Source: Candidatus Poribacteria bacterium
GTDB lineage: Bacteria; Poribacteria; WGA-4E; WGA-3G
Direction: 5' to 3'
Length of the DNA stretch: 64,000 nucleotides
Assembly: GCA_965197475.1 (NCBI GenBank)
Contig: CBDANF010000003.1
Span: forward strand, 2,080,001 to 2,144,000
This document shows positions 14,715-32,517 of the stretch, piece after piece (position 1 is the first letter of the stretch; the number at the start of each line of letters is the position of its first letter). A program made the position numbers and the translations under genes. The notes below the pieces were generated by a model. The model was given only the letters and a program-made list of their open reading frames with translations, was not told the origin of the DNA and did not search any database.

Positions 14715-17700
14715 TTAAGCAAGTAATTTCTCGACCGTTTGTTTCGCCTCTTCCATTTTTGGGTACCGAATTTGCCTATACCCTCGAACGTGTTCAACGC
14801 ATTCTAATGCTTCAACATGTTTGTCATAGTTCTTTTCATCGGATGGGGCAAACGTATCTATTACTTCTCTGATATACCACTCTCTGAATTCCCGCTCTTT
14901 TGCGTGCCACTGCAATAACCAGTGTCTCAGAAACTTCATGTGTTTCATCATGTGCAACATCCAATTTCGGGTATCAATATCATGTTGAATATCAATTCCC
15001 ATCACGTTGAAATGAGGACGATTTAGATGAAGGTATCGGATTTTATCACCGTTTTTCTCATCTACATTATAGCGTATCTTGTCTCGATCGAGTTTTTCTT
15101 TACTTGTCAGCAGGTGTGAAACATATACTTCATCCTTAATCAGCATTACTTTATGTAAATACTTAATGGCAGCTTTGGTGGCACGGTAATCACCAAAGTC
15201 TTTTTCGTAAACTTGTTCAATCTTTTCTATGTATATCTGTGCATAGTTTATATTTTCAAACTGAATCAGATCGCAAATATAGAGTGCAAGACTTTGATGT
15301 GTGGGGTCATCTAATTCAACTTTTTTAACGATACCCTCAACTAAACTAACGTATGAATCAGCAAGACGTTTACCACGAAATTTTTCTGCAAGAATACGTT
15401 TTTTCTCTTCTAATGTGTCTGCATAAGATTGTTTCAAGACATCAGACATAGGTTGCGATAGGATGTTGTCAGCATTTTCATTTGCTGCGAGGTATCTGCC
15501 GACTTCAAAAGCATTCAGATTCTGTTGTAAATCGGAACGTTTGACCATCTGCTTCAATGCGAGTTTCATCGGTTCCAGTTCAAGCGGCATCAACCTTTTT
15601 TGGAATGCCACTCCTAATAGCATGATATTTGCGTACAGTTTTGCGCCGAATAATTTTTCAGAAATCTCAAATAGATTCAGTCCAAAATACATATTGGTAC
15701 AATGTTTAATAGTTTCTTCTAAATCGGCGATTTCAAAATTATCTTTTCCGATGAGCGTTGTCACCGTATCAGTTTTGGCAGTATTGACAACGGCAGCGGT
15801 ACGTTCAGTTGATGCGACACGGAAGACTGATCCTGCTGTAATCCCCCGAACTGCCTCTAAAATGTCAAGACCCAAGACGAGATCCGCCTTGCCGTAAGGA
15901 ATAATCGGTGAAATCTTAGTACCCAAATTTGAATAGGTGACGTGTGTATAGACACCTCCATTACGAATCGCTAAACCCTTTCTATCACAGAAATGCACAT
16001 CATACCCCTGGATATACCCGGCAACGACAAGTATTTTAGAGATCGTTCCGATACCCATCCCGCCGACCCCTGCAGCGTAAGCACTCCAGGCTCTATCAAA
16101 AGTTCGTGGGGGTGGTGGTGGCAAAGGATGCCCTCCGTTCAATCCAAGTTGCGAAAGTAAATCGGATAGCCCTGATTCCTCCCATTCATTTGATATGCTT
16201 GAGTCCTGCTCTTTAGGTTTTTCAATCTGATGAACATGTTGTAGGCGAGGAGGGCGTTTTCGTGTGACTATGACTTCTTCAAAGGACGGACACGCCCATT
16301 TTATGCGCGCACAAGCACCATCGGTTACACAGTTAGAACGATCAATCGCTATTTTGTTGCCATAGTCGGTATCAACAATTTTTAAGGCGGGGCATCCCGT
16401 AGATTTTGTGCACTCTAAACAAAATTCACAAACTTCTGATGTAATGTTAATATGTTTTTCGACCTTTAAGAAGCCGTTTTTCTCTTTGATCGCTTGTTGT
16501 TCGCGTCTAAGTCGTCGGTGGAAAGTAATCGCACACTCTTTATCCGCAATAATAATTTTGACACCTGGTCTTAGTATCGCCTTCTCAAGATATTTTTTAT
16601 AGTTCAGTCGGTCTTCGGGGTTTACCCGCACAATAGTAATCTCGGAATTTCCAGCCAACCCTTGTGCGACCTTCTCAATATCTTGGGCAAACGTAGGATT
16701 ACCGAGTATGTCAACATCACCAGCAGGTGTCGGTTGGTGACCGGTCATTGCTGTTGTCTGGTTATCTAAAATAATATATGCGATATCTTGGTTATTTTTG
16801 ATTGAATCAGAAATTGCGGAGATTCCGCCGTGAAAGAAGGTTGAGTCTCCCATGAATACAACCTGCTTGTTGACGATGAAAGGGTCAATGCCTGCGCCTG
16901 CCCCACCGCCGAGTGTCATTGCAGAGAGATTGTGCATCAAGCGCGGAAACGGTTCGTATTTTAGCATTGAATAGCATCCGATATCCCCGTGAAAAACGAG
17001 ATCAACGGGGGATGAATCGTGATGCTTCTGCATATACGCAGTATCCATGAATTGATTTGTAATTTCAAGAAGGACACTTGAGGAATCACGGTGTGGGCAT
17101 CCTGGGCAGAAGGTAGGCGTGCGTTTCGGGATATCAGCCTTAAAATCAGCTATCTGTTGCTGTAACTGTGCTTCTTTTGCCAAGAGTTCCATATCAACGG
17201 GAACACCCTTTGCAAATCGCCCCTCTTTTCCGTTTTTTGAAAAGAGCGGTATTAAGCGTTGGATTAGAATAGATGGGTCCAATCCGGCTTCCATGGGTAT
17301 TCCGGGCAAACCTTCAGGAAACTGTTTACCCCATACCTTCACAAGCTTATCAAGATTACCCGCCTGATACATTTGCATTAGTAATGCCTTAATCTCATTT
17401 TCAAGGACAGGACGTTTTTCTTCAACAACAAACAGTTCATCTATTTCTTGTGCAAACTCACGAAGAATATCTGGATCAATCGGATGCGTCATACCGAGTT
17501 TGAGGATGGGAATAGATCCGCTGAGATTCAGTTCAGACAAGGCATGTTCCAGATAAGCATAACTGAAACCAGCTGTCAAGAATCCGATTTTTTTCTGTTT
17601 TTGATCTGAGGTTGAATGGTTATTTGAATTTGTTGGATAGAGAATCTCGTTGAGACCTAACCGCTTGGCAGTTTTGAGTGCGGCGGGTAGTCTTTTTTGA

Positions 17701-18404
17701 AGTGTTTCAACTTCAATGCGAGCGGTATCAGGTGGTAACACCACGCGGTCATCTATAGAAATTAACGCTGTATCCAATTCTATTTGTGCGATTTGGCTAA
17801 TGGTTGGATAACAATTTGGATGTAGTTCAACATTTCCGCCGCCATCTGCCTGATTTTGCGTCGTTAGAAAGCAGGTATAGAGGTTTGCCTCCGCAGAAAT
17901 TTCAAAGGCGTAATTAATCCAATTTTTGAGTTCTTGCCAAGTAGATGGTTCTAAAAGAGGCATATAGAGGTGTCGTGCCAAAAAACGAGAATCGGCAGGG
18001 ACCTGTGTGCTATACGACCATGTATCATCGCCTACTACAACAACAGCACCGCCGGTTGTACCTGCAAGATTGCAGATCGCGAGCGCATCAGACGCAACGT
18101 GCAAACCGACACTTTTCATGAATGCTATTGCGCGCATATCTGCCATTTGTGAACCATTCAACCGGGCAATGCTCAATGCCTCATTATTGGCTATTTGGGC
18201 TACGATGCCGTGTGATTTGAGGAGATCCGAATTACGCTGCAGAATATCAAATACCTCTGCAAGCGGTGACCCTGGATACCCTGTCATCAGGCTAACGCCG
18301 CTTTCTAAAGCACCTTTGACTAGCAACTCACAGCCAGTATAGACGTTTGTGCCGTTTGATTGTGTAAACCTTTCATCCATATTAAATGATCCTTTAAATG
18401 GCAT
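14715..18404 (-). CDS. Fused indolepyruvate:ferredoxin oxidoreductase family protein
   Basis: GYPGSP, FCPGCPH, GDIGC, GDSTFFH (TPP binding), AMTGHQ, ferredoxin CEFCLEC and GVGGMGI motifs. Confidence 0.9.
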   Translation of the reverse strand: MPFKGSFNMDERFTQSNGTNVYTGCELLVKGALESGVSLMTGYPGSPLAEVFDILQRNSDLLKSHGIVAQIANNEALSIARLNGSQMADMRAIAFMKSVGLHVASDALAICNLAGTTGGAVVVVGDDTWSYSTQVPADSRFLARHLYMPLLEPSTWQELKNWINYAFEISAEANLYTCFLTTQNQADGGGNVELHPNCYPTISQIAQIELDTALISIDDRVVLPPDTARIEVETLQKRLPAALKTAKRLGLNEILYPTNSNNHSTSDQKQKKIGFLTAGFSYAYLEHALSELNLSGSIPILKLGMTHPIDPDILREFAQEIDELFVVEEKRPVLENEIKALLMQMYQAGNLDKLVKVWGKQFPEGLPGIPMEAGLDPSILIQRLIPLFSKNGKEGRFAKGVPVDMELLAKEAQLQQQIADFKADIPKRTPTFCPGCPHRDSSSVLLEITNQFMDTAYMQKHHDSSPVDLVFHGDIGCYSMLKYEPFPRLMHNLSAMTLGGGAGAGIDPFIVNKQVVFMGDSTFFHGGISAISDSIKNNQDIAYIILDNQTTAMTGHQPTPAGDVDILGNPTFAQDIEKVAQGLAGNSEITIVRVNPEDRLNYKKYLEKAILRPGVKIIIADKECAITFHRRLRREQQAIKEKNGFLKVEKHINITSEVCEFCLECTKSTGCPALKIVDTDYGNKIAIDRSNCVTDGACARIKWACPSFEEVIVTRKRPPRLQHVHQIEKPKEQDSSISNEWEESGLSDLLSQLGLNGGHPLPPPPPRTFDRAWSAYAAGVGGMGIGTISKILVVAGYIQGYDVHFCDRKGLAIRNGGVYTHVTYSNLGTKISPIIPYGKADLVLGLDILEAVRGITAGSVFRVASTERTAAVVNTAKTDTVTTLIGKDNFEIADLEETIKHCTNMYFGLNLFEISEKLFGAKLYANIMLLGVAFQKRLMPLELEPMKLALKQMVKRSDLQQNLNAFEVGRYLAANENADNILSQPMSDVLKQSYADTLEEKKRILAEKFRGKRLADSYVSLVEGIVKKVELDDPTHQSLALYICDLIQFENINYAQIYIEKIEQVYEKDFGDYRATKAAIKYLHKVMLIKDEVYVSHLLTSKEKLDRDKIRYNVDEKNGDKIRYLHLNRPHFNVMGIDIQHDIDTRNWMLHMMKHMKFLRHWLLQWHAKEREFREWYIREVIDTFAPSDEKNYDKHVEALECVEHVRGYRQIRYPKMEEAKQTVEKLLA

Positions 18405-20173
18405 TATCCATTCAATAGTTCACGCGCATGGGCGAGACCAACTTCTGTCTCTTTTCCACCGTGCATACGTGCAATTTCCGTTACACGCTCGGATTCAGTC
18501 AACGGTTTGGCAGAAATCAAAGTTCGTTCACCTACAACCTCTTTCTCAACCAAGAAATGTCGATCAGCAAAACGGGCAATCTGTGGCAGATGTGTTATAC
18601 AGATAACTTGAGCAGACTCGGAAAGTTCCTTCAATTTCTTGCCAACAACATCTGCGATTTTACCGCCTATTCCGCTATCAATTTCATCAAAAAGTACGGT
18701 CGGAATACTATCAACCTGAACCAACACTGTTTTTAGGGCAAGCATGACACGGGATATCTCACCACCGGACGCAATTTTTGCCAGAGGACGCAACTCAGAA
18801 CCGACGTTAGGGGCAATCAAAAACTCAACTTTATCCATACCGTGCTCGCGAAAAGCATACCGTTTTCCATCAATTAAGAATAAACCGTTATCATCTCGGA
18901 AAGGCTCAACCGATGTCCGAAATTCTGCTTTTTCCATGCCTAATTCTTGGAGTTCCTTTTCAACTGACGCTGAAAGCCTTTCAGCAACTTTTTTGCGTTT
19001 ATCCGACAACGCAACACATAACTGCTGTGCCTCTTGTTTCATTTCACGAATTTGGTCTTTAAGAAAATCAATTTTTTCAGAACCGAGTTCTAAATCCTCC
19101 AATTTACGTTGTGCTTCGGCTTGGTAATTTAACATCTCTGAAATAGTGTTACCGTATCGTCTTTTGAATTTAGAAATAAGTTCTAATCGGTCCATTACTT
19201 CGGCAAGACGCATCGGATTGAACTCTACAGTGTCTGCGTACTGACGGATTTGTGATGCGATATCTTCAAGTTCGTATAACGAAGAATCTATTCGCTCGCT
19301 CAATTCAGAAAGATTAGCATCGATTTCAGACAATTTCGCAACGGATTTTACGGCATCCCTTAAATTTTGCAACACTGATACACCACTACCAGCATTTGTT
19401 CCTCCAAATATTCCCTGTTTATCACCATCAAGTTGGTCATATACATGATTTGCAGATTCATATAATTGTTCAGCGTTGCTGAGTATTCCTATCTCTGCTG
19501 TTAGTTCTTCCTCTTCACCTTCTTGAAGATCTGCTGATGCAAGTTCCTTAACCTCAAATTCAAGCAGTTCCTTTTCGCGTTCAGATGTTCTCAATGTATG
19601 TATGAGTGAATCCATCTCTCGTTGCAAATCAAGGAGATGGTGGTATTTTTCGCTAACTTGTTGCCGCTCTGTATCGGTTTCTCCGAAATCATCTAATAGT
19701 TCAAGATGTGTTTCAGTTCTAAACAATGATTGGTGTTCGTGTTGTCCATGAATATCAACCAGCACTGCGCCGAGTTCTTCAAGTTGTTTTAAATTTGCCA
19801 ACTCTCCGTTGATACGACAACGACTTCTGCCATTTGCACTTATTTGTCTGGAAAGAACCAAGGAACCGTCTGTTTCAGTAACTATTGGTACCGGCGATGA
19901 TGGCATAACACTGACTTCCACAGCCGCAAAGTCAGTGCCTTCCCGCACAATATCAGCAGATGTTCGTTCTCCTAAAACCAAGCCAATTGATTTGAGGATA
20001 ACTGATTTTCCTGCACCGGTCTCACCAGTAAAGATGTTCAATCCAGGTGAGAGCTCCAATTCCAATTCGTCTATCAGGGCAATATTGCGGATAGAGATCG
20101 CTTCTATCACGGGTTTTTCCTTGTTGTTTTCCTTACAAGTCCCTTCTGACAATGTTTTATTTGATTCTTTCAC
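18404..20173 (-). CDS. recN: DNA repair protein RecN
   Basis: GETGAGKS, IHGQHEHQ, ASGGE, FDEID and THLPQ motifs. The true start may be GTG at 20110. Confidence 0.95.
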   Translation of the reverse strand: MKESNKTLSEGTCKENNKEKPVIEAISIRNIALIDELELELSPGLNIFTGETGAGKSVILKSIGLVLGERTSADIVREGTDFAAVEVSVMPSSPVPIVTETDGSLVLSRQISANGRSRCRINGELANLKQLEELGAVLVDIHGQHEHQSLFRTETHLELLDDFGETDTERQQVSEKYHHLLDLQREMDSLIHTLRTSEREKELLEFEVKELASADLQEGEEEELTAEIGILSNAEQLYESANHVYDQLDGDKQGIFGGTNAGSGVSVLQNLRDAVKSVAKLSEIDANLSELSERIDSSLYELEDIASQIRQYADTVEFNPMRLAEVMDRLELISKFKRRYGNTISEMLNYQAEAQRKLEDLELGSEKIDFLKDQIREMKQEAQQLCVALSDKRKKVAERLSASVEKELQELGMEKAEFRTSVEPFRDDNGLFLIDGKRYAFREHGMDKVEFLIAPNVGSELRPLAKIASGGEISRVMLALKTVLVQVDSIPTVLFDEIDSGIGGKIADVVGKKLKELSESAQVICITHLPQIARFADRHFLVEKEVVGERTLISAKPLTESERVTEIARMHGGKETEVGLAHARELLNG

Positions 20174-21020
20174 CTAACATCAACTTTTCGCGCAATGCTT
20201 TGTAGTAACTATGACTTCGGGACCTGATAAGCTGAATTGTTCGTTTTGCCTTACGCACCTTTATTTCCGCTTCTCTTGCGAGGGTGTGTGTTTCGCGCTG
20301 TCCATCAATAAACAGGTCTAAGCTATCATAAGCAGAGTGCATCTCTACCTTTATCTCTGCATCACCGTGTGCGATAAAGGGACGCACAGTAAGACTATGC
20401 GGTGCAATGGGTGTTAGTAGAATTGCCTCCAATTGAGGTGCGACAATTGATCCATTACACGCAAGCGAATATCCTGTTGAACCACTTGGTGTGGCAATTA
20501 TCAATCCATCTGCCCTATACGGAATAAATAGTTCTCCATCAACGTACGCATCCAACTCAATTAGTCGTGTATAGTGCCGGATTACAACATCGTTCAGCGC
20601 GAATGCATGGAATGGACGCGGACTCTGACTATTGACGAAAACTTCCAACATCATTCGATGCTCTATCCGATAATCACCTTTTAATGTTGCCTTTAAGGTC
20701 GGTTTAAGTTCATCAAGCGATGCATCTGTTAGAAAACCGAGATGTCCAATATTGATAGCGAGGATCGGCACGTTTTCAATCTGTGGTGTATGGGCTGCAC
20801 TTAGAAGAGTCCCATCGCCGCCGAGGACAAGTACTATATCCGCCTCTTCTACCATTTCCGCGGTAGCGATTCCTGTTAGTGGGAGCCCGAGTGCTTTTGC
20901 TTGTTCATCAGGCACTAACGGAACCACCCCATCTTTCTTTAATAACTCCGACACGTCTGCTACGATTTGGGGTGCTTTCTCCTTAGTAGTGTTGACAAAA
21001 AAACCGACCTTTTTCGTCAT
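20157..21020 (-). CDS. nadK: NAD kinase
   Basis: GGDGT, GHLGFL, LND and TPSGSTGYSL motifs. ATG at 21020 overlaps the upstream stop. Confidence 0.95.
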   Translation of the reverse strand: MTKKVGFFVNTTKEKAPQIVADVSELLKKDGVVPLVPDEQAKALGLPLTGIATAEMVEEADIVLVLGGDGTLLSAAHTPQIENVPILAINIGHLGFLTDASLDELKPTLKATLKGDYRIEHRMMLEVFVNSQSPRPFHAFALNDVVIRHYTRLIELDAYVDGELFIPYRADGLIIATPSGSTGYSLACNGSIVAPQLEAILLTPIAPHSLTVRPFIAHGDAEIKVEMHSAYDSLDLFIDGQRETHTLAREAEIKVRKAKRTIQLIRSRSHSYYKALREKLMLGERIK

Positions 21021-22015
21021 CCCATCTCCTTTTCTAATCGGGAAAACCCAAAGATAATCACACATCCAACCAGAAAAACACACACTGTAATAAGCAAATT
21101 CATGTCAAGTTGTGGTAGCAGATGTGCCGTATCATAGCGTTTTTCCCCAACTATCACTGCATCGCGAAATGGCCATAAACCATACAAAGAACCCACCATT
21201 AAACCTATTAAAAAAGCGATTGTCAGATTGCGGTAGCGTTCCAGCAGAAAGTTTAGAAGCCTTGTAAATGCTAATACACCAAACAGACAACCGAGTGCAA
21301 AAAAAACGAGTATCAGTAGATTATCCAGAAATGACTGACTTATGTCTCCCTTCAATATAGTTGGGATACCGTCCATAAAATTACTAATCGTGGTTAAAAG
21401 CGGGAAATACACACCGAATGCAACTAATAGAAACGAACCACTGATACCGGGGAGAACCATTGCGGAAATAGCCAACGCGCCACATACAAAAAACATTGTG
21501 AGCGTTCCGACCGTGACTTCTAACCCAATATTTACCTCTGATGCGCTACCCGCAGCAGTTTTTTTGAATTCTTCCACAAAAACAATCAGTGAAATTGCTA
21601 CGAGCAAGATTAGCAGTTCTTTCCAACTGAATCCTTTTAGCATCCGCACTGGTATCAAAATAGATGTTAAGACCAAACCGCAAAAGAAGCCATAAGTCGT
21701 ATCATGCTGAGAATCCAAAAGATAAGCAATTAGTTTTGTCGATAGCAATACTGCGGCGACAGCACCAATTCCTAATATCGTTAGAAAACTGAAGTCAATA
21801 CGGCGGAGTTCATCTCGAAAATCCAAGAATGCTGTCTTTCTAAAGGTAAAAATGTTAAGCAGTCGCTTCACAGTCGCAAGTCCGATGTTGCGTAATGCTG
21901 TGATTAAGCGTTCATAAATTCCTAAAATAAGGGCGAGAGTGCCACCACTCATACCCGGAATAATGTTGGCGATGCCTATCAGAAAGCCGTTAACAAATAG
22001 ACGGAGTGCATTCAT
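21017..22015 (-). CDS. DUF368 family membrane protein (undecaprenyl-phosphate translocase family)
   Basis: IPGMSGGT and AMVLPGISGS repeats, GLMVGSL..LWPF. Confidence 0.9.
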   Translation of the reverse strand: MNALRLFVNGFLIGIANIIPGMSGGTLALILGIYERLITALRNIGLATVKRLLNIFTFRKTAFLDFRDELRRIDFSFLTILGIGAVAAVLLSTKLIAYLLDSQHDTTYGFFCGLVLTSILIPVRMLKGFSWKELLILLVAISLIVFVEEFKKTAAGSASEVNIGLEVTVGTLTMFFVCGALAISAMVLPGISGSFLLVAFGVYFPLLTTISNFMDGIPTILKGDISQSFLDNLLILVFFALGCLFGVLAFTRLLNFLLERYRNLTIAFLIGLMVGSLYGLWPFRDAVIVGEKRYDTAHLLPQLDMNLLITVCVFLVGCVIIFGFSRLEKEMG

Positions 22016-22597
22016 ATTTTGGTGTGTTGAGATCAGTCAGTTTCTAATATTATAGCATCTGTCTCACTACAATTTCTCCGTTTCAGTAAGCAGTGTTCAT
22101 AGTTTCGTTTATGCTTTTTTAAAACACTGTCAGAAATTATACTACAAAACCCAAATTATGTCAACCGTTTATATTTATATAAAGGTATTCAGAAAATAAG
22201 ACGAATTTTAGAAACGATATGTTGATTGTACCAAAAGATATTCTTGATTGCCAATCGTTTTCAGTTTCGTATTAGTTATTATACAGACCAGATTCCTATC
22301 AGAATCGCTTTTCTTAGCATTAATTTATGTTTTCCGATAAGCTTTACCGCTAATACCACTCAATTATGGCTAAAATACGAGAATTGGCGTATTTGAAGGA
22401 TATTAGATTAACGTGAGTTCGTAATAATACCATTTCTGAAAATTTCAGAGTATTCAGGGTAAAGTGCAAAACATTTTGATGTGGTTTTCGGTTCAAGAAC
22501 CCGACATATTCTTAATAATTTGCCGAATATCACATATAACATATCATATAATAAGCCATAGTATAATTATAAGCATTCGTAACATATAGATATACTT

Positions 22598-22712
22598 AAT
22601 AATGAGACTCAATATCATATCCATTTAATAATACTGAGTCTCATTATCATATTTATTAAACGAGAATGAGACTCAATTACGATAAATCTAAATGATAATA
22701 AGTTTCATTCTC
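22598..22712. promoter_or_regulatory. Array of four Fur-like 19-bp palindromes with 32-bp period
   Basis: Boxes start at 22598, 22630, 22662 and 22694. Local consensus GATAATGAG-W-CTCATTATC. Confidence 0.75.
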
Positions 22713-23035
22713 ATTTAGATAAAGTTACCAACGTTAAATCAAAATGCCATTTTCGTGACAACAATTCAAAATTTACTATAGTGTTAAAATTGGGTTTATT
22801 TTTCAAATTATCTGTTTTCTGCCGAATTTAAATTCTGTATATTGCCGTGGTTTCTCAGAAAAATACATATTAATCCTCACAAAACCTTATTAACGTCTAT
22901 CTTCAAAATCCCTCTGCGAATTTAGATGTTATGATTTCGAGATATTTAAAACAAATCTATTGACTTTCACACCTGATAATATGATACACTATGCAAAAAT
23001 TCTCATTCAATCCTGAACAGTAAAGGTAAACACTT

Positions 23036-23953
23036 ATGAACTTCCCAATCTTGTCCGAATCAAAACGTATTGAGATGTTGCAACCTCCACAGGGACGTGT
23101 GCGGATGGTACTTGACACAGACACATACAATGAAATTGACGATCAGTTTGCAGTCGTTCACGCGCTTCTCTCACCAGAACAACTCAACGTTGAAGCGATA
23201 TACGCTGCTCCTTTTCACAACAACCGTTCAGCGAATCCCGAAGATGGAATGGAAAAAAGTTATGACGAGATTTTGCGGCTTTTGGACTTTCTTGAAGTCA
23301 AATCTGATGGTTTTGTTTATCGCGGTTCAAAGGGATTTCTCTCTGATGGAGAAACACCTTTACCAAGCGAAGCAGCGACAGATATGGTTGAACGAGCAAT
23401 GGCAAATACAGACGAACCTCTCTATATTGTTGCTGTTGGTGCTATAACCAACGTTGCTTCTGCAATCTTACTTGAACCGAAAATTATCAAAAAGGCAGTC
23501 GTCGTATGGCTTGGTGGTAATCCGCTATATTGGTCTCATACCCGAGAGTTCAACCTTGCACAAGACATTCACGGAGCGCGAGTGGTCCTCAATAGTGGTG
23601 TGCCGTTTGTACATCTACCCGCACGCGGAGTTGTCTCGCACCTGTTAACAACAGTGTCAGAAATGGAGCGTTATGTCCAAGGACAGGGAAAAATTGGTGA
23701 CTACCTTGTTGAAATTTTCAAAGATTACCACAAAGACCACTTTGCTTGGTCAAAGGTTATATGGGATATATCTGCCACCTCTTATCTTGTGAATAACAGC
23801 TGGGTGCCAACAGAAATTGTGCATAGTCCTATTCTGACAGATGCTGTAACGTGGAGTTTTGATAACAGTCGGCACCTCATGCGTGTTGCGACGGGTGTGA
23901 ATCGGGATGCGATCTTCCGTGACCTATTCCAAAAGTTACAGCGGGCTAATTAA
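23036..23953 (+). CDS. Inosine/uridine-preferring nucleoside hydrolase family
   Basis: DTDTYNEIDD Asp cluster, GAITN, EFN and IWD motifs. Confidence 0.9.
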   Translation: MNFPILSESKRIEMLQPPQGRVRMVLDTDTYNEIDDQFAVVHALLSPEQLNVEAIYAAPFHNNRSANPEDGMEKSYDEILRLLDFLEVKSDGFVYRGSKGFLSDGETPLPSEAATDMVERAMANTDEPLYIVAVGAITNVASAILLEPKIIKKAVVVWLGGNPLYWSHTREFNLAQDIHGARVVLNSGVPFVHLPARGVVSHLLTTVSEMERYVQGQGKIGDYLVEIFKDYHKDHFAWSKVIWDISATSYLVNNSWVPTEIVHSPILTDAVTWSFDNSRHLMRVATGVNRDAIFRDLFQKLQRAN

Positions 23954-24135: not shown

Positions 24136-24290
24136 ATTCGTACACCTTTTTCTTGAAAAAAGATCTGTATTCTGTTAAAATCATAGAAATAAGTTAAACT
24201 TGTTTACAGATACATTCAAACGGTCTGAGAGTTCTTTATACCGTACTCCTACGATTCGTGTTCCTGCCTTTATTCACAACGGAGATAATC

Positions 24291-25175
24291 ATGGATACAC
24301 TGAACGATTTCAGAATCAAACAAAATAAATATATCCCCAACTTTCCTAAAGCAAATGGGAAACCGACCATTTACATAGAAGGCTATCCGTGTGAGGACGA
24401 TGAACCTATGGCCGCAACCGATTTTCACGCTGAGCAGATAACTACGTTCTCCGACCAACTCAAGCGATATTTCGCAATCAACGAACTAATCCACATTGGC
24501 GTTGACAGTTTTATCTATTATAGCGAAGGGGATATCACAAAAGTTGTCGCACCTGATATCTACATCGTTTTTGGTGTAGAAAAATATCCGCTACGTCGTA
24601 GTTTCTATACGTGGGCGGAAGGGACAGTACCTATAGCGGTTTTTGAGTTTCTCTCTGACTCAACTGCGCGTCTGGATCGGCAGAAAAAAGTAGACTTGTA
24701 TATGACAGAAATAGGAGTTCAAGAATACTTTATCCACCAACCTGAAATGGAGAAACCTGCGGAATTTCGTGGTTGGCAGCGAAGTACTTCTGGGAATTAT
24801 ACTGAGATTGTGCCTGATGCCGAAGGTGGATTGTTCAGTAATGCGTTAAATCTCTGGTTTCGATGGAAAGATGACCTAACGACACATGTGAGACTGTTGC
24901 GCCCGTCCCTTCCTGATGGCACGCCTATAACAACTTCTATGGAGGAAGAACAACTCCGGAAGCAAGAAAGACAACTGCGAGAGCAAGAACAAAACCTTCG
25001 TATCCAAGAACAACACCTACGAGAAGAAGCAGAAGCGATGGCAGCAGAAGAAGCAGAACGACGACAAGCAGCAGAGGCACTTGCTAAACAGGAAACTGAA
25101 CGGTGTCAGGAGTTAGAAACTGAGTTAGAACAACTTCGTACCCAAATCGCTAATAACGAAAATGGAACCTCTTGA
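24291..25175 (+). CDS. Uma2 (DUF820) family PD-(D/E)XK nuclease-like protein with a C-terminal coiled coil
   Basis: VAPDIYIV, VFEFLSDST and GVQEYF motifs, E/Q/R heptad tail. RBS ggag. Confidence 0.9.
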   Translation: MDTLNDFRIKQNKYIPNFPKANGKPTIYIEGYPCEDDEPMAATDFHAEQITTFSDQLKRYFAINELIHIGVDSFIYYSEGDITKVVAPDIYIVFGVEKYPLRRSFYTWAEGTVPIAVFEFLSDSTARLDRQKKVDLYMTEIGVQEYFIHQPEMEKPAEFRGWQRSTSGNYTEIVPDAEGGLFSNALNLWFRWKDDLTTHVRLLRPSLPDGTPITTSMEEEQLRKQERQLREQEQNLRIQEQHLREEAEAMAAEEAERRQAAEALAKQETERCQELETELEQLRTQIANNENGTS

Positions 25176-25236: not shown

Positions 25237-25521
25237 TTAAAGAGATTTTAAGCAATTTTGCCGTTCCTCCCAATCTGGTAAATACGCTGACATATACCCC
25301 TTAAACAACTGACCGTGATTCGGCACAAGTAGATGCACTAATTCATGCACAATCACAAATTCTGCCAACGTTTCTGGTAGATTAAGCAACTCTGTGTTGA
25401 GCGTCAATCTACCTTTGGTTGATATAGATGCCCATTTTCGTCGCATGGCGCGCAAATGCACCTCCCGCACCTCAACACCAATGCGGTCTGACCATTGCCA
25501 CACAACATCTTTCAAATCCAT
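25237..25521 (-). CDS. Short YgjP/DUF45-like zincin protein
   Basis: MRRKWAS, VHELVHL..PNHG..F motifs, directly after hsdR. Confidence 0.85.
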   Translation of the reverse strand: MDLKDVVWQWSDRIGVEVREVHLRAMRRKWASISTKGRLTLNTELLNLPETLAEFVIVHELVHLLVPNHGQLFKGYMSAYLPDWEERQNCLKSL

Positions 25522-25546
25522 CGGGTTATCCCATGCTTTTCGGTTT

Positions 25547-28420
25547 TCATATCCGTTTCAACTTTAGCAATTTGTTAGTTGTTTCAATCAGATTTTTTGT
25601 CCCAACTGTTGGGCTTAATGTTTTATAGAGCATACTGCGTAACTCTTTTGCTTGGTGTTTGTCCCACTGATGGTCAGGGTATTTTTCAAAGATTTGATTG
25701 ACGGCTTGTGCTTGTTCTGGTGTAATATCTTCTCTAACATTTCTGAGGACTGTATAGATGGCAAAAGCGTTATCATCCAATTCAGTCTGGTTTTGTTCTC
25801 TTTCAGCGCGTGAAACTTCTTCAGCAAACTTCATCAACTCAGTTAATGCATCTTTTGTTCCTAACTGACGATTGTCATAGGTTTCTATAGCTGCTTCTGC
25901 GCGTTCGCCAATTGGGATCAGAAACGGTTTTGATTCCCCTTCCTTGATTACTGTTTGCCGCAGTGCTTTCCGCAAATTCATCACTTTAACCGCATCAGAT
26001 ACATCGCTCTGATCTATTTCCTTCAAAGTGGTTTCGTTCAATTCATAAATATCATCGGGTAATTCTAATATATTGCCTTCCGTATGCGCTTGCAACAGTT
26101 CCTGTGTTTTAGCGGTTAACTCTTTATCAACGGAAATATTGTCAGAATTTGCATTACGAATTAATCTATATAGCGATGCAAGAGTTTGGTAATCCTCTAA
26201 AAATGGGTGTAAGAAGGGATCAGGTGAAAGGATGTTATAGAGATTCTGTAACTGTTTGAAGAACGTGAAAAATGCTTCTCGGACATCCTTATCTGCAAAA
26301 TGTTCAATCGCGCGTTCTATTGCTTTATCGTCCGTTCCTTCGGCAAAGGGTAAATATTGTTGTGCGTCTTCACGCATCATCTCTGCAAATCTATCTTTCA
26401 GTTCATCAATGTTTTGAATTACGCTTTCCACTTCGTCAGAATCAAAGACGAGTGCCTTTTTCATGTTTTCAAAGATACCGACAAAATCAAATACAAACCC
26501 CGCGGGTTTTAGCAATCCATCCTCATCTTCATAAGGTCGATTGACACGCGCAATTGCCTGTAACAACACATGGTCACGCATCGGTTTATCAAGATACATG
26601 CAGTAAAGGATCGGTGCATCAAATCCAGTCAATAATTTTTGGGTCACAATCAGTATTTTCGGTTGTTCGTTTTTGTCAATGAATTGCTTACGAATTTCTT
26701 TCTCTTGATCTGGTGTGTGGTGGAATGATTTCATCAGTTCGGAGTCGTTATTGTTGTGAGAGTAGACTACCTCCGAATATTCTGGTGATAGGTGCTTATC
26801 CAATTCTTCTTTGTAAAGGGCGCACGCCTCACGGTCTACTCCGACCAGAAACGCCTTGAATCCCATCGGCTCAATTCTTTCCTTGAAATCTTTTGCTACA
26901 AACTTAGCAATTTCTGCCACCCTATTAGGTGCTTTCATTATCGCTTTTAGATTGACAGCGCGGTCAAGGATTGCGTTCAGTTCGTCTGGGTCGCTAACGC
27001 CTTCCGCTTCTGCAAGGCTTAGAAATTCCTGATCTAATATCTCTGGATCCACCCGTAATCCAGATGGTGCAAGGGCGTAGTTTAACCTTAAAGTTGTGCC
27101 ATCTTCAATAGATTCCGCGATACCATATTTATCAAGATATCCCTGTTCATCATCTTTGCCGAATACTTTGAAAGTGCCTTCACCTTTAGAAAGGTTATCA
27201 ATCGGTGTACCAGTAAATCCGATATAGGTTGCATTCGGCACGGCAGCCATTAAGTAATTTCCAAAGTCACCACCTGTGGTTCTGTGTGCTTCGTCAATTA
27301 AGACAATTACGCTCTCGCGGGTATTGAGATCTGCTGGTCTCTTGTCGAATTTATGAATCATGGACACAATCAAACCGCGATAATCGGATGCTAAAGCATC
27401 TTCCAAGTCATTCTTGCTCTCTGCTACTCTGGAGGTTGAAAAACCGTAAGCGGTGAGATTTTTAAAGAGTTGGCTTTCTAATTCATTGCGGTCAACAATC
27501 ATTAGCACGGTAGGCTTTTCAGACTGCTTTCCACCGCGCAGGAGTCGTGATGCAATTGAAATCATAGTGAGAGTCTTACCGCTGCCCTGTGTATGCCAAA
27601 CAAGCCCGCGCCGTTTGTTCTGATCGTTAACCCGATCAATCACTTTTTCTATTGCGCGCGTTTGGTGTTGACGCAACACAACTTTAGAAAGTTGGTTATC
27701 TCTACTCTGAAAAATAATAGACCGCTGCAATTCATAAAGTATACGTTCGCGCTGGAAAAAAGTCTTTACCTTCTGTTCATAGTTTGCAGACTCATCTGTT
27801 TTCCAATCGAAGATATTTTTGCGGTTGGTGTTCCACGTCACGCTATAGAGGAGGTTTTTTAGGTCCGTGACACCAAATAGTTGCGCAGTGGTAAACATCT
27901 CAGGTGTTTCGCGATGGTAGCGGCGAATTTGATCCACCCCTTGGGCTAATCCATCCCGTTTCTTTGCGGATTTTGTTTCTACTACTGCAATCGGTATTCC
28001 GTTAATGAGAAATACAACATCAGCGCGATTGGTGTGGACAACACCTTGTTGCACCCATTCATCGGTAACATGAAACAGGTTATTGTCGGGGTTCTCAAAA
28101 TCTATCAGGGTAACGTTGCGTTGGCGGTTTTCACTGTGAACAAAAGTTGACTCTCTACCGTGCATCCATGAAAGTGCGTCCTGATTTCCCTCAAGTGTGG
28201 ATTTAAGCAAATCAAGCAGCCGCATAACATCATCGCAGTTGGAGTCGTCTACGACATCCTTGTTAAGTTTTAAGAGTTGCGCTTTTAGCACATCCGTAAA
28301 ATAGCGCGCGGAGGTATTGCCGCCCCGCATACGTCTTGCATCTGATGGCGAAATATATTGCCAACCGATTTCATTGGCGTATTTGAGTAGTGGGTCTTGG
28401 ACTGCGGAACGTTCAGACAT
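25547..28420 (-). CDS. hsdR: Type I restriction endonuclease subunit R
   Basis: RADVVFLINGIP..VETK, WHTQGSGKT, DEAHR, FTGTP, LTGFDAP and QAIARVNR motifs. Confidence 0.97.
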   Translation of the reverse strand: MSERSAVQDPLLKYANEIGWQYISPSDARRMRGGNTSARYFTDVLKAQLLKLNKDVVDDSNCDDVMRLLDLLKSTLEGNQDALSWMHGRESTFVHSENRQRNVTLIDFENPDNNLFHVTDEWVQQGVVHTNRADVVFLINGIPIAVVETKSAKKRDGLAQGVDQIRRYHRETPEMFTTAQLFGVTDLKNLLYSVTWNTNRKNIFDWKTDESANYEQKVKTFFQRERILYELQRSIIFQSRDNQLSKVVLRQHQTRAIEKVIDRVNDQNKRRGLVWHTQGSGKTLTMISIASRLLRGGKQSEKPTVLMIVDRNELESQLFKNLTAYGFSTSRVAESKNDLEDALASDYRGLIVSMIHKFDKRPADLNTRESVIVLIDEAHRTTGGDFGNYLMAAVPNATYIGFTGTPIDNLSKGEGTFKVFGKDDEQGYLDKYGIAESIEDGTTLRLNYALAPSGLRVDPEILDQEFLSLAEAEGVSDPDELNAILDRAVNLKAIMKAPNRVAEIAKFVAKDFKERIEPMGFKAFLVGVDREACALYKEELDKHLSPEYSEVVYSHNNNDSELMKSFHHTPDQEKEIRKQFIDKNEQPKILIVTQKLLTGFDAPILYCMYLDKPMRDHVLLQAIARVNRPYEDEDGLLKPAGFVFDFVGIFENMKKALVFDSDEVESVIQNIDELKDRFAEMMREDAQQYLPFAEGTDDKAIERAIEHFADKDVREAFFTFFKQLQNLYNILSPDPFLHPFLEDYQTLASLYRLIRNANSDNISVDKELTAKTQELLQAHTEGNILELPDDIYELNETTLKEIDQSDVSDAVKVMNLRKALRQTVIKEGESKPFLIPIGERAEAAIETYDNRQLGTKDALTELMKFAEEVSRAEREQNQTELDDNAFAIYTVLRNVREDITPEQAQAVNQIFEKYPDHQWDKHQAKELRSMLYKTLSPTVGTKNLIETTNKLLKLKRI

Positions 28421-28470
28421 AACTGTCTCCGAATTGAGAGATTAACTAAATAAAAATATGCAACGTAACT

Positions 28471-28758
28471 TTATTCTTCCTCTTCTGCCTCAGAAACGCG
28501 ATGGGAACGAATTTCTTGAATATGTTTTACACCTTCAGATATATCAAGTACTGCAATTAACACATGCCATAAACCGATGATAGTTACTCCATGGTGACTC
28601 CTTAGATTCAATGCTTTGATATCTTCTAAAAAAGGTGGCAAAACTTCAATCAAACCTGTGATAACGAGAAAAACGCCAAAGAAAAAATTCAGAATTGCAA
28701 CAATTATTTTCCATTTTTTATTCTTCATGTGAAATTTTATCATTTTTGTAAGAACCAC
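28471..28758 (-). CDS. Small two-TM membrane protein inserted between hsdS and hsdR
   Basis: Two hydrophobic stretches, AT-rich, co-oriented with the operon. Start is uncertain. Confidence 0.55.
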   Translation of the reverse strand: MVLTKMIKFHMKNKKWKIIVAILNFFFGVFLVITGLIEVLPPFLEDIKALNLRSHHGVTIIGLWHVLIAVLDISEGVKHIQEIRSHRVSEAEEEE

Positions 28759-29920
28759 CTTGTGAATTTAGTAATCCCACATCAATCAACGGCACAGCAG
28801 ACCTTTGCCCTGTCATCAGTTCATCAAGCATGGCGTGAAAGAGTTCATCTATCAGTTCAACTTCTCGTTCAAGAGCTGCTATTTTTTCGTCACAACTGAC
28901 CAACACCAAAGCAATCTTGTCTGTTTCCTCTTTGCTGGGTCTTGGTACCGGAATATTTAATAGCGATGCTTTATTCAATTTTGGTCTCGTTGCTCCACTC
29001 AAATACGGAGCTAAATCAATTGAATTAAAATAATATTCCAAGAAAAATTGTTTAATATCATTAACTCTTAAGACATGGGCGTGATTATTAACCCACGATT
29101 TACCCTCTATTGAATAAGCAATTGGTAGTTTTCTTGAAACAAGATTTTCTCCATCTTCAGCAATAAGCAGTAACGGTTCATCAAACAAATAATCATCTAT
29201 CCAGTCGATTTGACCGCTTGCCCCGTAATATGGCACTTCTCCTTTTCGTTCATTCCTGTCACTCTGTTTTATAGGAACACGCTTTGAATCTAAGCATTCA
29301 CATAATTTTTCGAGTTTTACAACTTTCCAATTCTCAGGAATCTCGCCAATTTCTGTCTGTTTGTGGGGTTCACCTTTTGTGCCGTGAGAAAAGAGAAAAT
29401 CCATCAATGCCGCTTTGCGTTCCCGTTCTAATGCAATTTCGCGTTGCCGGGTGAACTTTGCTTCTTGGATTGTGTGTAAGATGTGGGCGATGGCGCGTTG
29501 TTCGGGTAGTGAAGGACACACAACTGAAAATTCTTGTAAATACCTATAGTGCCGATTATATCCTTTATTGGGCACGTTAAGATTCGAAAGCGCGTAATAG
29601 AAAAAACGGGCATCAAGAATTTCATCGTTTGGGTAAAGAAGTTGTGTTCCATCAGCCCCAAGCACAAATGGGAAATCAACATATTTGAAAATACGTGTAT
29701 GATCTCCAAAAATCACAGCAGGCAAATTATCAGAGATCACAGACTCAAATGAGTCTGTCCAACCGGCAATAAATGATGCCCCTTGGTCAATTACTGGAAA
29801 TTCGCCTGATTCTTGGTAGTCTTTTTTAGGAATTGAAGGCTTCTTCTTAGATTTAACCTTTTTTAAACAATCTATAAAGGGTAGAATTTTCCAATGTTCT
29901 GGTAAATTTATTCCATCCAT
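28718..29920 (-). CDS. hsdS: Type I R-M specificity subunit
   Basis: Two TRDs separated by PSLPEQRAIA ... GEIPENW, with a C-terminal LDELMTG conserved region. Confidence 0.93.
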   Translation of the reverse strand: MDGINLPEHWKILPFIDCLKKVKSKKKPSIPKKDYQESGEFPVIDQGASFIAGWTDSFESVISDNLPAVIFGDHTRIFKYVDFPFVLGADGTQLLYPNDEILDARFFYYALSNLNVPNKGYNRHYRYLQEFSVVCPSLPEQRAIAHILHTIQEAKFTRQREIALERERKAALMDFLFSHGTKGEPHKQTEIGEIPENWKVVKLEKLCECLDSKRVPIKQSDRNERKGEVPYYGASGQIDWIDDYLFDEPLLLIAEDGENLVSRKLPIAYSIEGKSWVNNHAHVLRVNDIKQFFLEYYFNSIDLAPYLSGATRPKLNKASLLNIPVPRPSKEETDKIALVLVSCDEKIAALEREVELIDELFHAMLDELMTGQRSAVPLIDVGLLNSQGGSYKNDKISHEE

Positions 29921-29972
29921 AACAACTTTTCCTCAAGTTAATTGAGAGATCATACCTGAACGATGTTCTTTT

Positions 29973-30710
29973 TCATCTCCTACTGCTCGGTTTTCCAGGT
30001 CCGCTTCTCGTGGATCCTGTCGGTGTTCCTCGGGTTTGACCTCTTGATTCTGACTGACTTTGTCCTCTCTGGCTTTTTGGAGTACTTGGAGGTGCTGTCC
30101 GATTTGCATGTGAACGGACTATCCGCCTTGCATGTGAACGGACCATTCGATTTGAATAACCTTCTACAGAGCTACTTTGCTTGTCAGAAACAGTGGATTG
30201 ATCCTCCGCATACGGTCCCGAATCAAAAGCTCTATGTACTACCTCAAAGGTATAAAGTGGTTTGCCATTAGTAGTCAATTCCTGAAGTTGAGTTTGGATA
30301 ATTTTTCGATCTATCAAACCTGGGTCTAATATGGCAAGGTCAAAATCAGGACGCACGATATGTAGACCCATTCCATATTTATCAGCAACACCCTTTACTC
30401 CATCATCAAACCCAGTGTTGGTAATCAATATGGCTTTATTAGCATTATTTATGTCATTCCTAACAAACTGTAATTCTTTTGCTCTCCCTATTTGCACATT
30501 ATCTGATCCGCGCCACTTTGCATCGGCAATATTTAAATATAGTGCAACTTCATTTCCATCTTCCCAATAAAGGTCAATCTGATTCTCATATTTCACTAAA
30601 CCAGGGTGAGTTGGACTTGGAATCCTGACAGATTTTACTTCCTCAATGGAAGTTTCAAATTTATCAGCTATAAACAACCGACATAATTCTTCATACTGTA
30701 TGTAATGCAT
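29973..30710 (-). CDS. Mrr_cat-like restriction endonuclease domain protein with a disordered tail
   Basis: YEE, QIDLYW, ADAKW and AILITNTGF pattern. A 24-bp tandem repeat at 30104-30151 lies in the tail. Confidence 0.75.
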   Translation of the reverse strand: MHYIQYEELCRLFIADKFETSIEEVKSVRIPSPTHPGLVKYENQIDLYWEDGNEVALYLNIADAKWRGSDNVQIGRAKELQFVRNDINNANKAILITNTGFDDGVKGVADKYGMGLHIVRPDFDLAILDPGLIDRKIIQTQLQELTTNGKPLYTFEVVHRAFDSGPYAEDQSTVSDKQSSSVEGYSNRMVRSHARRIVRSHANRTAPPSTPKSQRGQSQSESRGQTRGTPTGSTRSGPGKPSSRR

Positions 30711-30723
30711 TTCTAACTCCTTT

Positions 30724-32358
30724 TTATTTAATTTTTAGTTTAAGTTGTACTAATATTTCTTCCAATGTGTTATCCGCTTTTTCGCGTGCGATGCGGGCTA
30801 CTGTTAAGTCAGCCAAAATCTCATTCACCGGACGGTGTTCAACTTTATCGCCGACATCCACAAACTGGGACGGGCTCAAGTTGTAATCGGTTTTCTGTGC
30901 ATCCTCAAGTGTGATAACTTTGCTTAACTTTTCACGCGATTCCCAGGCTTCATAGACTTCAGTTGCTGCTTTGATTGCTTCATCGGTTAGGACATTTTTC
31001 GGTTTTCCCTTCTCAAAATGTTGGGATAGGTTGATAAGCAGGACCTGTTCTCTTCGTTCTTCCGTTTTGTTGCGGTTCAGTAGCAAAATTATGCCCGGCG
31101 CGGTTGTGTTGTAAAACAGATTTTCGGGAAGTAGGACTACACCTTCAATCAGGTCCTCTTCAACAAATTTTTTGCGGATATCGCGCTCCCGATTAGTCTG
31201 TTTAGCACCAGAACCGCGAGAGACTGCGCCGGTATCCAGCACAATCGCTGCGCGTCCATTATCCTTTAGAGAAGCGAGCATGTGCTGCACCCATGCCCAA
31301 TCTGCTGAGGAGCTGGGCGGGGTTCTGTCCGAGAATCGGTTCCAATTATCATTTTCGTAAAAATCATCGTCATATTCTTTCTGATTCCACATCGGGTTTG
31401 CCACCACATAGTCAAAACGTTGGAGTTTTGAATTATCAGCGGCAAAACGTGGGTTACGGAAAGTATCGCCTATCTGAATATCCGCGCTGATAAAATCGTG
31501 TAGAAAGGCGTTCATTTTTGCCATTGCGTAGGTGGTCGGAGTCAATTCTTGTCCATAGATGCGTGGTGCTTGGCTCTTTTCGTCCGGGTGCATTTCATCA
31601 AATTGCAATCGTCCTTTGATAAGCAGCCCGCCTGATCCGCACGCGGGATCGTAGATAGTGGAATAGGGTTCAGGGTTAAGGAGTTTTGCCATTAGCCATC
31701 CGACCTCTTTCGGCGTATAGAACTCGCCTGCGCTCTGTCCTTGTCCTTCAGCGAACTTGCGCAATAGATACTCGTAGGCACGTCCGAGGATATCCGGCTC
31801 CGCATCTTCAAGTCCAAGCCGATGTTGACTTATAACCTCAATCAGTTTTTCAAGGCGTTCGTCGTCAATAAGTCTTTGTCCGCTTTGGGTTTCGCTGAAA
31901 TCTTCTACGTCAAGCACGCCCTGTAAACGTGGGTTTAGACGTGCAACCTCGCGCATTGCACCGGTAACAAACTGTCCCAACCGACCATCCGCGGGCTGGT
32001 TTCGGAGTGCTTCCCAACTATACTGCTGCGGAATATAAAAACGGACAATTGGGTCGTCGCGATCCGTTTTAAGTGCGTCTTCATGGTCTGCTGCAATAAT
32101 CTCTCGTGCGACCGCTTCATCACCGAATACCTCAACATGTTTTGCAAACTCATCATCAAACACATCGGAGAGTCGTTTATAAAAGATTAGCGGTAAGATG
32201 AAATCTTTGAATTTTGGTGCATCGGTTGCGCCGCGTATCACACAAGCAGCATCCCATAGCCAAGTTTCAAGTGTGGATATATCTAAATGTTCCTCGTTTT
32301 CAGATTCCAAGGGGAGTGTGGTTTGGGTGTTGTCGGTTGGGGTTTTCTTTTTCGGCAA
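30724..32358 (-). CDS. hsdM: Type I R-M N6-adenine methyltransferase subunit
   Basis: LWDAACVIRG, GEFYTP, DPACGSGG, ANPMW and LPENLFYNT motifs. TTG start after aaggag. Confidence 0.96.
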   Translation of the reverse strand: MPKKKTPTDNTQTTLPLESENEEHLDISTLETWLWDAACVIRGATDAPKFKDFILPLIFYKRLSDVFDDEFAKHVEVFGDEAVAREIIAADHEDALKTDRDDPIVRFYIPQQYSWEALRNQPADGRLGQFVTGAMREVARLNPRLQGVLDVEDFSETQSGQRLIDDERLEKLIEVISQHRLGLEDAEPDILGRAYEYLLRKFAEGQGQSAGEFYTPKEVGWLMAKLLNPEPYSTIYDPACGSGGLLIKGRLQFDEMHPDEKSQAPRIYGQELTPTTYAMAKMNAFLHDFISADIQIGDTFRNPRFAADNSKLQRFDYVVANPMWNQKEYDDDFYENDNWNRFSDRTPPSSSADWAWVQHMLASLKDNGRAAIVLDTGAVSRGSGAKQTNRERDIRKKFVEEDLIEGVVLLPENLFYNTTAPGIILLLNRNKTEERREQVLLINLSQHFEKGKPKNVLTDEAIKAATEVYEAWESREKLSKVITLEDAQKTDYNLSPSQFVDVGDKVEHRPVNEILADLTVARIAREKADNTLEEILVQLKLKIK

Positions 32359-32478: not shown

Positions 32479-32517
32479 TTATACAATGCTATCAACCCAC
32501 ATCAGCGGAGATATTTC

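Follow-up and report, generated by a model that had tools for sequence, protein, structure and literature searches.

The most AT-rich kilobase of a 64,000-nucleotide stretch from a Candidatus Poribacteria bacterium (contig CBDANF010000003.1; hereafter the window) contains an array of four palindromic sites that follow one another at exactly 32 bp, in the gap between a DUF368-nadK-recN-IOR operon and a nucleoside hydrolase gene. This array is probably a clade-specific and apparently single-copy cis-regulatory module, in which phased operators for an oligomerising regulator are set between outward promoter-like elements. The gap (positions 22016-23035) is 1020 bp long and has a GC content of 29%, compared with approximately 43% in its surroundings. 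It holds no open reading frame (ORF) longer than 57 aa, and four small ORFs tested there gave no Pfam match. The array lies 583 bp from DUF368 and 324 bp from the nucleoside hydrolase. An earlier note on this DNA, made from its letters alone, had described a gene-free gap of about 1 kb with these genes at these distances; its outline of the locus was correct, and Pfam upheld the names it gave to the flanking genes.

Four 19-mers begin at positions 22598, 22630, 22662 and 22694 and match GATAATGAG-W-CTCATTATC at 17, 17, 15 and 16 of 19 positions when counted by eye; the starts, the exact 32-bp steps and the scores given in the earlier note were all reproduced from the window sequence. Comparison of the sites across loci revealed that conservation extends by two bases at either end of each 19-mer (AT...AT), and hence the sites measure 23 bp and the true spacers 9 bp of almost pure A/T. 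The former description of the spacers as 13 bp long, AT-rich and unrelated thus holds for their composition, whereas their supposed unrelatedness holds in part only, since the spacers so defined took in two conserved bases from either neighbouring site. The 19-mers are the cores of 11-1-11 palindromes of the form ATGATAWTGAG-W-CTCAWTATCAT. Putative operator site 1 (22596..22618, centre 22607) is the one nearest to the DUF368 operon, has its central base T toward the operon and scores 33.0 bits with the weight matrix introduced below. Site 2 (22628..22650, centre 22639) reaches 34.7 bits, site 3 (22660..22682, centre 22671) is weaker at 13.7 bits and has degenerate outer arms, and site 4 (22692..22714, centre 22703), which is nearest to the nucleoside hydrolase, has the core TAAGTTTCA and scores 19.2 bits. 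The three 9-bp spacers between these putative operators (22619-22627, 22651-22659 and 22683-22691) consist of A/T only and set the 32-bp period.

Such a cluster is not expected from base composition. With up to three mismatches allowed, the 17-mer core found three matches in the window, all of them within the array, against an expectation of 0.28, and none of 100 shuffles reached three; at a threshold of at least 9 bits, 36 of 2000 shuffled gaps had even one match to the 23-nt matrix. The sites are related to one another in orientation, too. Adjacent sites are mutually complementary (pair I1, with 29-nt arms that are 79% complementary), and a hand tally of the central-base strings indicated a tendency for A and T to take turns at the centre from one site to the next. 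Adjacent sites are thus inverted copies, and pairs of them form larger dyads; in locus L028, an additional 10-bp inverted repeat brackets the site pair.

To follow the array through the phylum, we used the DUF368 protein as a probe and, taking one genome per species, obtained 80 loci with 1,517,592 bases in total (best protein identity 91%), of which 77 are titled Candidatus or uncultured Poribacteria and three uncultured bacterium. Counts of arrays refer to the window together with the 31 closest loci (L001-L031), i.e., 32 sequences. With a plain consensus search, 30 of these 31 loci, all but L015, were found to carry the motif immediately upstream of DUF368, and eight stray single matches with two to three mismatches turned up elsewhere in the 1,517,592 bases. 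A symmetric 23-nt weight matrix, built from 52 seed sites and applied at a threshold of at least 9 bits, detected 81 sites in 31 of the 32 sequences and none in the corresponding gap of L032-L080; elsewhere in the 80 loci it gave three weak stray matches of 12.5-13.1 bits. Apart from the orthologous gap itself, neither the 80 loci (approximately 1.5 Mb) nor the rest of the 64-kb window yielded another copy of the array. Among the findings that would speak against the array, the earlier note had named its lack of conservation in relatives and its occurrence as a dispersed piece of a mobile element; it is instead kept in nearly all of the closest loci, and no dispersed copies were found in this sequence.

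Conservation is strongest at the centre of the sites, with the core TGAGWCTCA present in 94-103 of 104 symmetrised counts per position (101-103 save at positions +/-4). Next to it, position +/-5 is free to vary, and conservation returns from +/-6 out to +/-11. Of the 32 sequences, 5 have four sites, 10 have three, 15 have two, one has a single site and one has none; the number never exceeds four and changes by whole 32-bp units. Spacing is strict: 46 of the 50 centre-to-centre distances are 32 bp, three are 31 bp and one, in L017, is 22 bp. As this last value corresponds to a loss of 10 bp, all 50 spacings keep the sites on one helical face, which bears out across the arrays what had been proposed for the four sites of the window. 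The spacers themselves vary in sequence, as judged from 43 distinct examples between 32-bp-spaced pairs, and contain 8% GC, compared with 26% in the 150-nt flanks. Individual sites also keep their own peculiarities. Among 67 distinct sites, 15 have a half with G-to-A at position -3 (as in TTAAG), those read by eye being operon-proximal, and in one subgroup the distal site carries CTCTTTAT. Inheritance of such site-specific deviations across species indicates that the sites are old and orthologous rather than recent duplicates. Of the whole 1-kb gap, nothing but the array still aligns when the window is set against the array-bearing loci most remote from it (L027-L031).

The phylogenetic distribution is sharply divided. 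In a FastTree tree of concatenated DUF368, NadK, RecN and IOR segments (75 rows; L026, L036, L050, L061, L075 and L079 were left out because of incomplete gene sets), a split with 100% support has the array in 30 of 33 rows on one side, L015, L032 and L038 lacking it, and in none of 42 on the other. Since the tree has a midpoint root only, this is equivalent to one gain or one loss at that branch, followed by later losses. The array was lost at least three times. One of these losses can be followed at the junctions: L036 and L038 lack a segment of approximately 130 nt that is present in their close relative L028 and includes part of the hydrolase-side flank and both sites. In L028 this segment is bracketed by an 8-nt direct repeat, no target-site duplication was seen at the junctions, and the loss looks like a deletion.

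We then asked whether the palindromes behave as protein sites or as paired nucleic acid. At the 11 mirrored positions, Watson-Crick combinations were as frequent as expected for independent half-sites (P 0.18 or more), and only 23 of the 67 distinct sites have a Watson-Crick pair at the most variable position, +/-5. Half-sites without covariation are what is expected of a two-fold symmetric protein-binding site, not of a hairpin or a paired stem, and the palindromes behave as predicted sites of this kind. For a conserved set of dimer sites on one side of the helix, the natural reading is a cooperative nucleoprotein platform, as the earlier note had predicted.

Conservation in the window reaches past the sites, from 22525 to 22790, and both flanks contain promoter-like sequences that face outward. 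The operon-side flank (22525..22595, minus strand) is a BLAST-conserved block of 70 nt, strong in the subgroup of the window, that ends with a -10-like hexamer followed by GTGAAA; in the window it carries two TACnnnTGCTTA-like repeats, followed by a -10-like TTATAT (22539-22534) and then GTGATA (22533-22528), all directed toward DUF368. The hydrolase-side flank (22715..22790, plus strand) has AGTTACCAACGTTAA and then GTGACA (22755-22760), 16 nt and TATAGT (22777-22782), directed toward the hydrolase; this element scores 10/12 in a promoter scan and has counterparts in two of three subgroups, which read (T/C)GTGA-16 nt-TATAAT or TATAGT and then GTGAAA. In the following counts, left denotes the hydrolase side and right the operon side. 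GTGA[AT] begins +73 to +75 from the centre of the last (operon-side) site in 17 of 31 arrays, and +76 to +80 beyond the outer centre on the hydrolase side in 12 of 31. The composite of a -10-like hexamer and GTGA was present in 12/31 left and 7/31 right flanks, compared with 2.3% and 3.8% of shuffled flanks, and a relaxed sigma-70 match ends at +75 to +79 in 16/31 left flanks and at +67 to +71 in 12/31 right flanks. The module thus looks like two predicted outward promoters with operators between them; the nearest operator would be centred at approximately -80 of each. In one subgroup (L008, L019, L020, L023 and L025), a conserved TTAACGAAATGATAATA lies on the hydrolase side approximately 45 nt past the distal site and contains a half-site-like ATGATAAT, which may be an auxiliary half operator.

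The DUF368 operon has, outside the array module, a strong proximal promoter of its own (TTGACA-17-TATAAT, 22136..22164, minus strand), which matches the consensus at 12 of 12 positions. Of 81 sequences from both clades, 45 have a match to the strict pattern TTGAC[ATG]-N16-18-TA[TG]AAT in the 400 nt upstream of DUF368. In full, this near-perfect promoter reads TTGACA-N17-(TAG)TATAAT, then TTGACAG; it is situated about 65-360 nt upstream of DUF368, is almost unchanged in sequence across both clades and may be of use as a reference promoter in this phylum.

On this basis we propose the following scheme. It predicts from the sequence pattern that a protein binds, oligomerises and wraps the DNA, that the flanks work as promoters and that a regulatory output results. 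Each operator would bind one dimer of a sequence-specific regulator. The dimers would join into a tetramer or octamer, by which approximately 130 bp of DNA would be bent or wrapped, and the resulting complex would govern the two promoter-like elements that face outward at fixed offsets of ~70-80 bp from the outer operators. Of these, one would read toward the DUF368-nadK-recN-IOR operon and the other toward the gene on the far side, usually the nucleoside hydrolase, so that inputs from the array would be added to those of the genes' own proximal promoters.

Several observations weigh against this scheme and temper the confidence placed in it. No regulator gene of any family was detected by Pfam within the 64-kb window among the chosen ORFs of at least 70 aa, and no regulator stands constantly beside the array, as judged by Pfam on the variable neighbours in 14 loci; when matches with E up to 1 were admitted, a sub-threshold antitoxin-like helix-turn-helix (HTH) in an insertion of L026 was all that emerged from the array's neighbours. 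The outward promoters are consensus matches in AT-rich DNA, the relaxed sigma-70 counts come without a shuffle control and such matches are frequent in DNA of this composition. The right-hand promoter has a poor -35, and in group A its hexamer is CTATTT, without the A that usually stands at position 2. The distance that separates the last site and the operon -35 ranges from 63 to 7818 bp without any register, and the array is therefore not a classical operator of the proximal operon promoter; as this promoter and the operon also exist in the array-less clade, the array must be dispensable for basic expression. Arrays with three sites, 10 of the 31, fit poorly with a strict dimer-of-dimers model. 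Finally, the weight matrix was derived from the same loci in which it was applied, so that the independent evidence is the plain consensus search, which had already found the same 30 loci.

As to the identity of the regulator, the sites recall several known systems without fitting any of them fully. The half-sites are Fur-like, whereas the geometry resembles that of Lrp/AsnC octamers or NrdR tetramers, and we would file the array under none of the three; in its working it would come closest to an operator cluster that is phased and wrapped. By its half-sites, a Fur-family paralogue is the leading single candidate for the binder, which we put forward tentatively. It is quite unlikely, though worth stating, that such a paralogue, with a private G-W-C centre, acts here as an architectural regulator of a single locus, in which up to four dimers and approximately 130 bp of wrapped DNA would sit far upstream of divergent promoters. 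To our knowledge, an architectural wrapping mode has not been described for the Fur family; no dedicated literature search was made on this point. As a bolder addition to this reading, adenine methylation could gate binding, in analogy to the Lrp-dependent pap switch, which is gated by Dam methylation: every site core contains one GANTC, the orientation of which tends to alternate (36 of 50 adjacent central bases differ in a hand tally). The analysis gave methylation no support, the 234 occurrences of GANTC in the window being unremarkable against the 255 +/- 15 expected, a sign of neither avoidance nor enrichment.

The geometry of the array resembles that known from the Lrp family. According to PMC2995911 and PMC10201364, these proteins occupy clustered sites that share a face of the helix, with centres spaced by two or three turns, and intergenic DNA that separates divergent genes is wrapped by them; members of the Lrp/AsnC group (BarR, Ss-LrpB and FL11) typically use three to five imperfect palindromes, on which an octamer activates or represses. 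The array, with one to four sites at 32 bp in a divergent intergenic region, agrees with this geometry, and its maximum of four sites would fit the four dimers of an Lrp-type octamer. The sites differ, however: those of Lrp proteins, as far as described in these sources, are 13-15 bp long and have an AT-rich centre, whereas the array sites are 23 bp long and most conserved in their G/C-bearing centre, TGAGWCTCA. In addition, an Lrp regulator gene is commonly adjacent to its sites, and no Lrp/AsnC gene is present in the window or constantly beside the array. A supposed link between fused IOR genes and Lrp/AsnC regulators was pursued by tblastn against plasmids, which gave four records; the three that were inspected had IclR, no regulator, and LysR plus TetR as neighbours, respectively, and the idea was dropped.

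NrdR is comparable in spacing. In PMC13584703, it is described as a tetramer on two 16-bp boxes that are 15-16 bp apart (31-32 bp centre to centre), and its action as dependent on phase, with one added turn tolerated. Partial palindromes and an unconserved linker sequence are likenesses to this system, as are the 49 of 50 array spacings of 31-32 bp, and with a whole-turn change tolerated, spacings of 32, 31 and 22 bp all fit. However, none of the key NrdR positions given there (C4, A6, A8, T9, T11 and G13; PMC13584703) is matched in the array, and the site consensus ATGATAWTGAGWCTCAWTATCAT has no C-N8-G frame with an AT centre, as an NrdR box would need. Moreover, NrdR regulates ribonucleotide reductase genes, none of which was found near the array (64 kb), and it uses box pairs, in contrast to the up to four sites and the A/T-constrained spacers described here. 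The arrangement also recalls that of lambda OR, where several graded palindromic operators lie between two outward promoters. The period there is approximately 24 bp vs 32 bp in the array, though, and the operators of the array do not overlap promoter hexamers, are not flanked by a repressor gene and have no match in 50,697 phage records. Literature searches added little: the papers listed for the core sequence all looked like primers or unrelated eukaryotic and viral sequences, nothing usable, and Poribacteria are named in none of the papers listed by a search on Poribacteria with Fur and iron, for which any three of four terms sufficed.

Among the alternatives to an oligomerising regulator on a phased array, the best placed, if unlikely, is a Fur-family metalloregulator (Fur, Zur or a PerR paralogue) that would use the four boxes as a metal or redox switch for a small RNA (sRNA) or for the IOR operon. 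The likeness in sequence, on which the earlier note had built, is real. The array consensus GATAATGAG-W-CTCATTATC agrees at 17 of 19 positions with the classical Fur box of E. coli type, the 19-bp GATAATGATAATCATTATC, which is given in PMC11353095 with 6-6-1-6 and 7-1-7 readings. Both are AT-rich 9-1-9 palindromes with identical outer hexamers, GATAAT and ATTATC; TGA/TCA triplets recur at 6-bp intervals as in the Fur box; the sites of L030 read GATAATGAGAATC and are closer still to it; and the sole systematic difference is the invariant G/C at positions -1/+1. Paralogue-specific boxes of the Fur family in Bacillus likewise differ by one or two bases per half-site. Binding of Fur as dimers, dimers of dimers or extended arrays, as reported in PMC11353095, would suit several sites as well.

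The differences begin at the centre of the box, which is T-A-A in the Fur box and an invariant G-W-C in the array, where conservation moreover reaches 23 bp. Of the 7-1-7 units, the array's outer TGATAAT/ATTATCA halves stand 7 nt apart and the inner halves keep TGA/TCA only, and the in-register core TGATAAT-N-ATTATCA is missing at the dyad. Fur operators overlap promoters in 6-bp steps, spanning the -35 and -10 elements, whereas the array sites are discrete, stand at 32 bp, lie at least 63 bp upstream of the operon -35 and ~70-80 bp from the promoter-like elements, and overlap no -35/-10 pair. We know of no 32-bp phasing of separate Fur boxes, although no dedicated literature search was made for it. 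Furthermore, AT-rich TGA/TCA palindromes are common among unrelated operators. The genes of the region lend no support to a metal switch either, as the 64 kb contain neither a Fur-family gene nor a gene for metal uptake or storage, or any other of metal homeostasis or oxidative stress. Nor did the proposed sRNA find any footing, since no conserved sRNA body, terminator or significant Rfam match adjoins the array. Of the earlier proposal, the resemblance in sequence therefore stands, whereas the link to metals and the sRNA find no support. The array could still act in long-range control of the IOR operon or in organising the chromosome, two further roles named in the note, on which the evidence points neither way.

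It is very unlikely that the array is a structural or titration landing pad without a direct promoter role, occupied with high affinity by a nucleoid-associated, partition-like or other dimeric protein, with the effect of shaping the chromosome locally or of buffering the free level of that protein. Such a role would agree with the lack of a fixed distance to the proximal promoter of either neighbour, with the array's survival through changes of neighbours, with its single occurrence in the 64 kb and 1.5 Mb examined, and with A/T-only spacers, which suit bending. A pure landing pad, however, has no need of promoter-like conserved sequences at fixed offsets on both sides, and the flanks hence count against it. 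The sites also seem unlike the parS consensus, and the array was lost at least three times and is missing from the whole sister clade.

Still less probable is a relic or domesticated small mobile element, similar to miniature inverted-repeat transposable elements or BOX elements, in which conserved end modules with inverted TTTCACA..ATAG-like termini would enclose a variable number of 32-bp units. Both flanks indeed end in outward CTATnnGTGAAA-like motifs that are mutually inverted copies, the internal units number one to four and change as wholes, and the gap is a hot spot for insertion sequences. Against mobility speak the lack of a second copy, the stray matches mentioned above (three weak ones with the matrix, eight single ones with the consensus) being all that the window and 1.5 Mb yielded, and the lack of any BLAST match among 72,556 plasmid and 50,697 phage records, although a family of a few copies could still exist in the genomes at large. 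The element occupies the same orthologous place in 30 species, its individual sites keep their own variants, and the L028 vs L036/L038 junctions are free of a target-site duplication.

Secondary structure of RNA or DNA (transcript hairpins or cruciforms) or a replication origin, suggested by the self-complementary sites, the complementarity of adjacent ones and the AT-richness of the gap, is largely refuted and keeps hardly any probability: pairs do not covary, no hairpin can have a loop of one base, the sole match at E up to 1 in a relaxed Rfam search of the gap is a chance one to a microRNA-precursor model (E = 0.66), none of the window's 28 DnaA-box-like 9-mers (up to one mismatch) falls in the gap, the cumulative GC-skew minimum is away from the array near 33 kb (about 32400-33000), and an origin would not be missing from the array-less sister clade. 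Near this skew minimum, genes lying mostly on the minus strand give way to plus-strand ones where a UvrD/PcrA-type helicase gene begins (32518).

The module of phased operators and outward promoter-like elements, which we prefer to these alternatives, has one constant and one variable neighbour. The operon (14715..22015, minus strand) comprises, according to Pfam, genes for a DUF368/undecaprenyl-phosphate translocase-like protein (21017-22015), NAD kinase (20157-21083), RecN (18404-20173) and a fused IOR-family oxidoreductase (14715-18404), all on the minus strand, and has the same gene order in the loci that reach that far. The array is upstream of DUF368 in all 30 array-bearing loci. On its other side, the inosine-uridine-type nucleoside hydrolase (Pfam; 23036..23953, plus strand) is the usual but not constant neighbour and was found in 24 of the 31 closest loci. 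Six array-bearing loci have no hydrolase in the fetched stretch; for L014, whose stretch stops approximately 390 bp past the array, absence of the gene cannot be judged. Where the hydrolase is replaced, PolA together with an RRM protein, an ECF-sigma fusion, a PhyH protein or a 1114-aa protein without known function takes its place. The array stays put through such replacements, and likewise beside insertion sequences, which lie between array and DUF368 in L001 (rve integrase and HTH transposase, ~8 kb) and L020 (DDE_5), and between array and hydrolase in L030.

The AT-rich gap is itself a repeated landing place for insertions (L001 2100-9850, L020 8400-9761, L030 8144-9226 and L026 6795-9578). 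These are insertion sequences with rve, DDE_5 and Transposase_31 domains, and in L026 small ORFs that include the antitoxin-like HTH mentioned above. Another conserved block of non-coding DNA (22266-22412, minus strand), situated between the array and the promoter of the operon, is common to the window, L003-L007 and L011 and absent from the other subgroups. A small ORF or sRNA was considered for this block and rejected: the candidate frame of L003 and L004 is broken in the window by a 1-nt indel, as read by eye from an alignment, and the block is thus probably not coding. No tRNA genes were found, and no Rfam family reached its gathering score.

Poribacteria are uncultivated sponge symbionts, and we know of no experimentally defined regulator or operator from them. 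As a clean, deeply conserved and geometrically strict element, the array offers a handle on finding its regulator and allows three-turn phasing and wrapping to be studied at divergent promoters. If the binder proves to be of the Fur family, the known modes of action of this family would widen; if it is of Lrp type or from a new family, the site would add a new recognition code. The array also marks a clade boundary within the phylum and shows how a module is lost by deletion between short repeats.

Several other features of the window deserve mention. Next to the nucleoside hydrolase, a 305-aa ORF without a Pfam family (24258-25175, plus strand) has 21- and 24-nt tandem repeats at 24950-25079 and had no tblastn match at E 1e-10 or better among the 45 loci listed. 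It is followed by a type I restriction-modification system (25237-32358, minus strand) that consists of a YgjP-like metallopeptidase fragment, HsdR (25547-28420), HsdS (28718-29920), a 245-aa ORF and HsdM (30724-32358). What looks like an acquired restriction-modification island, with 32-40% GC, extends over 40000-44100 and contains two ORFs without Pfam match, a C5 cytosine methylase (42008-43024) and a HaeII-type endonuclease (43017-44078). Elsewhere in the window, three tandem Hsp20/alpha-crystallin genes are located at 3964-5765 (plus strand), a fragment of an IS4/IS5-type transposase (DUF4096) at 54500-54769, and two adjacent genes for large WD40-repeat proteins at 60953-63815.

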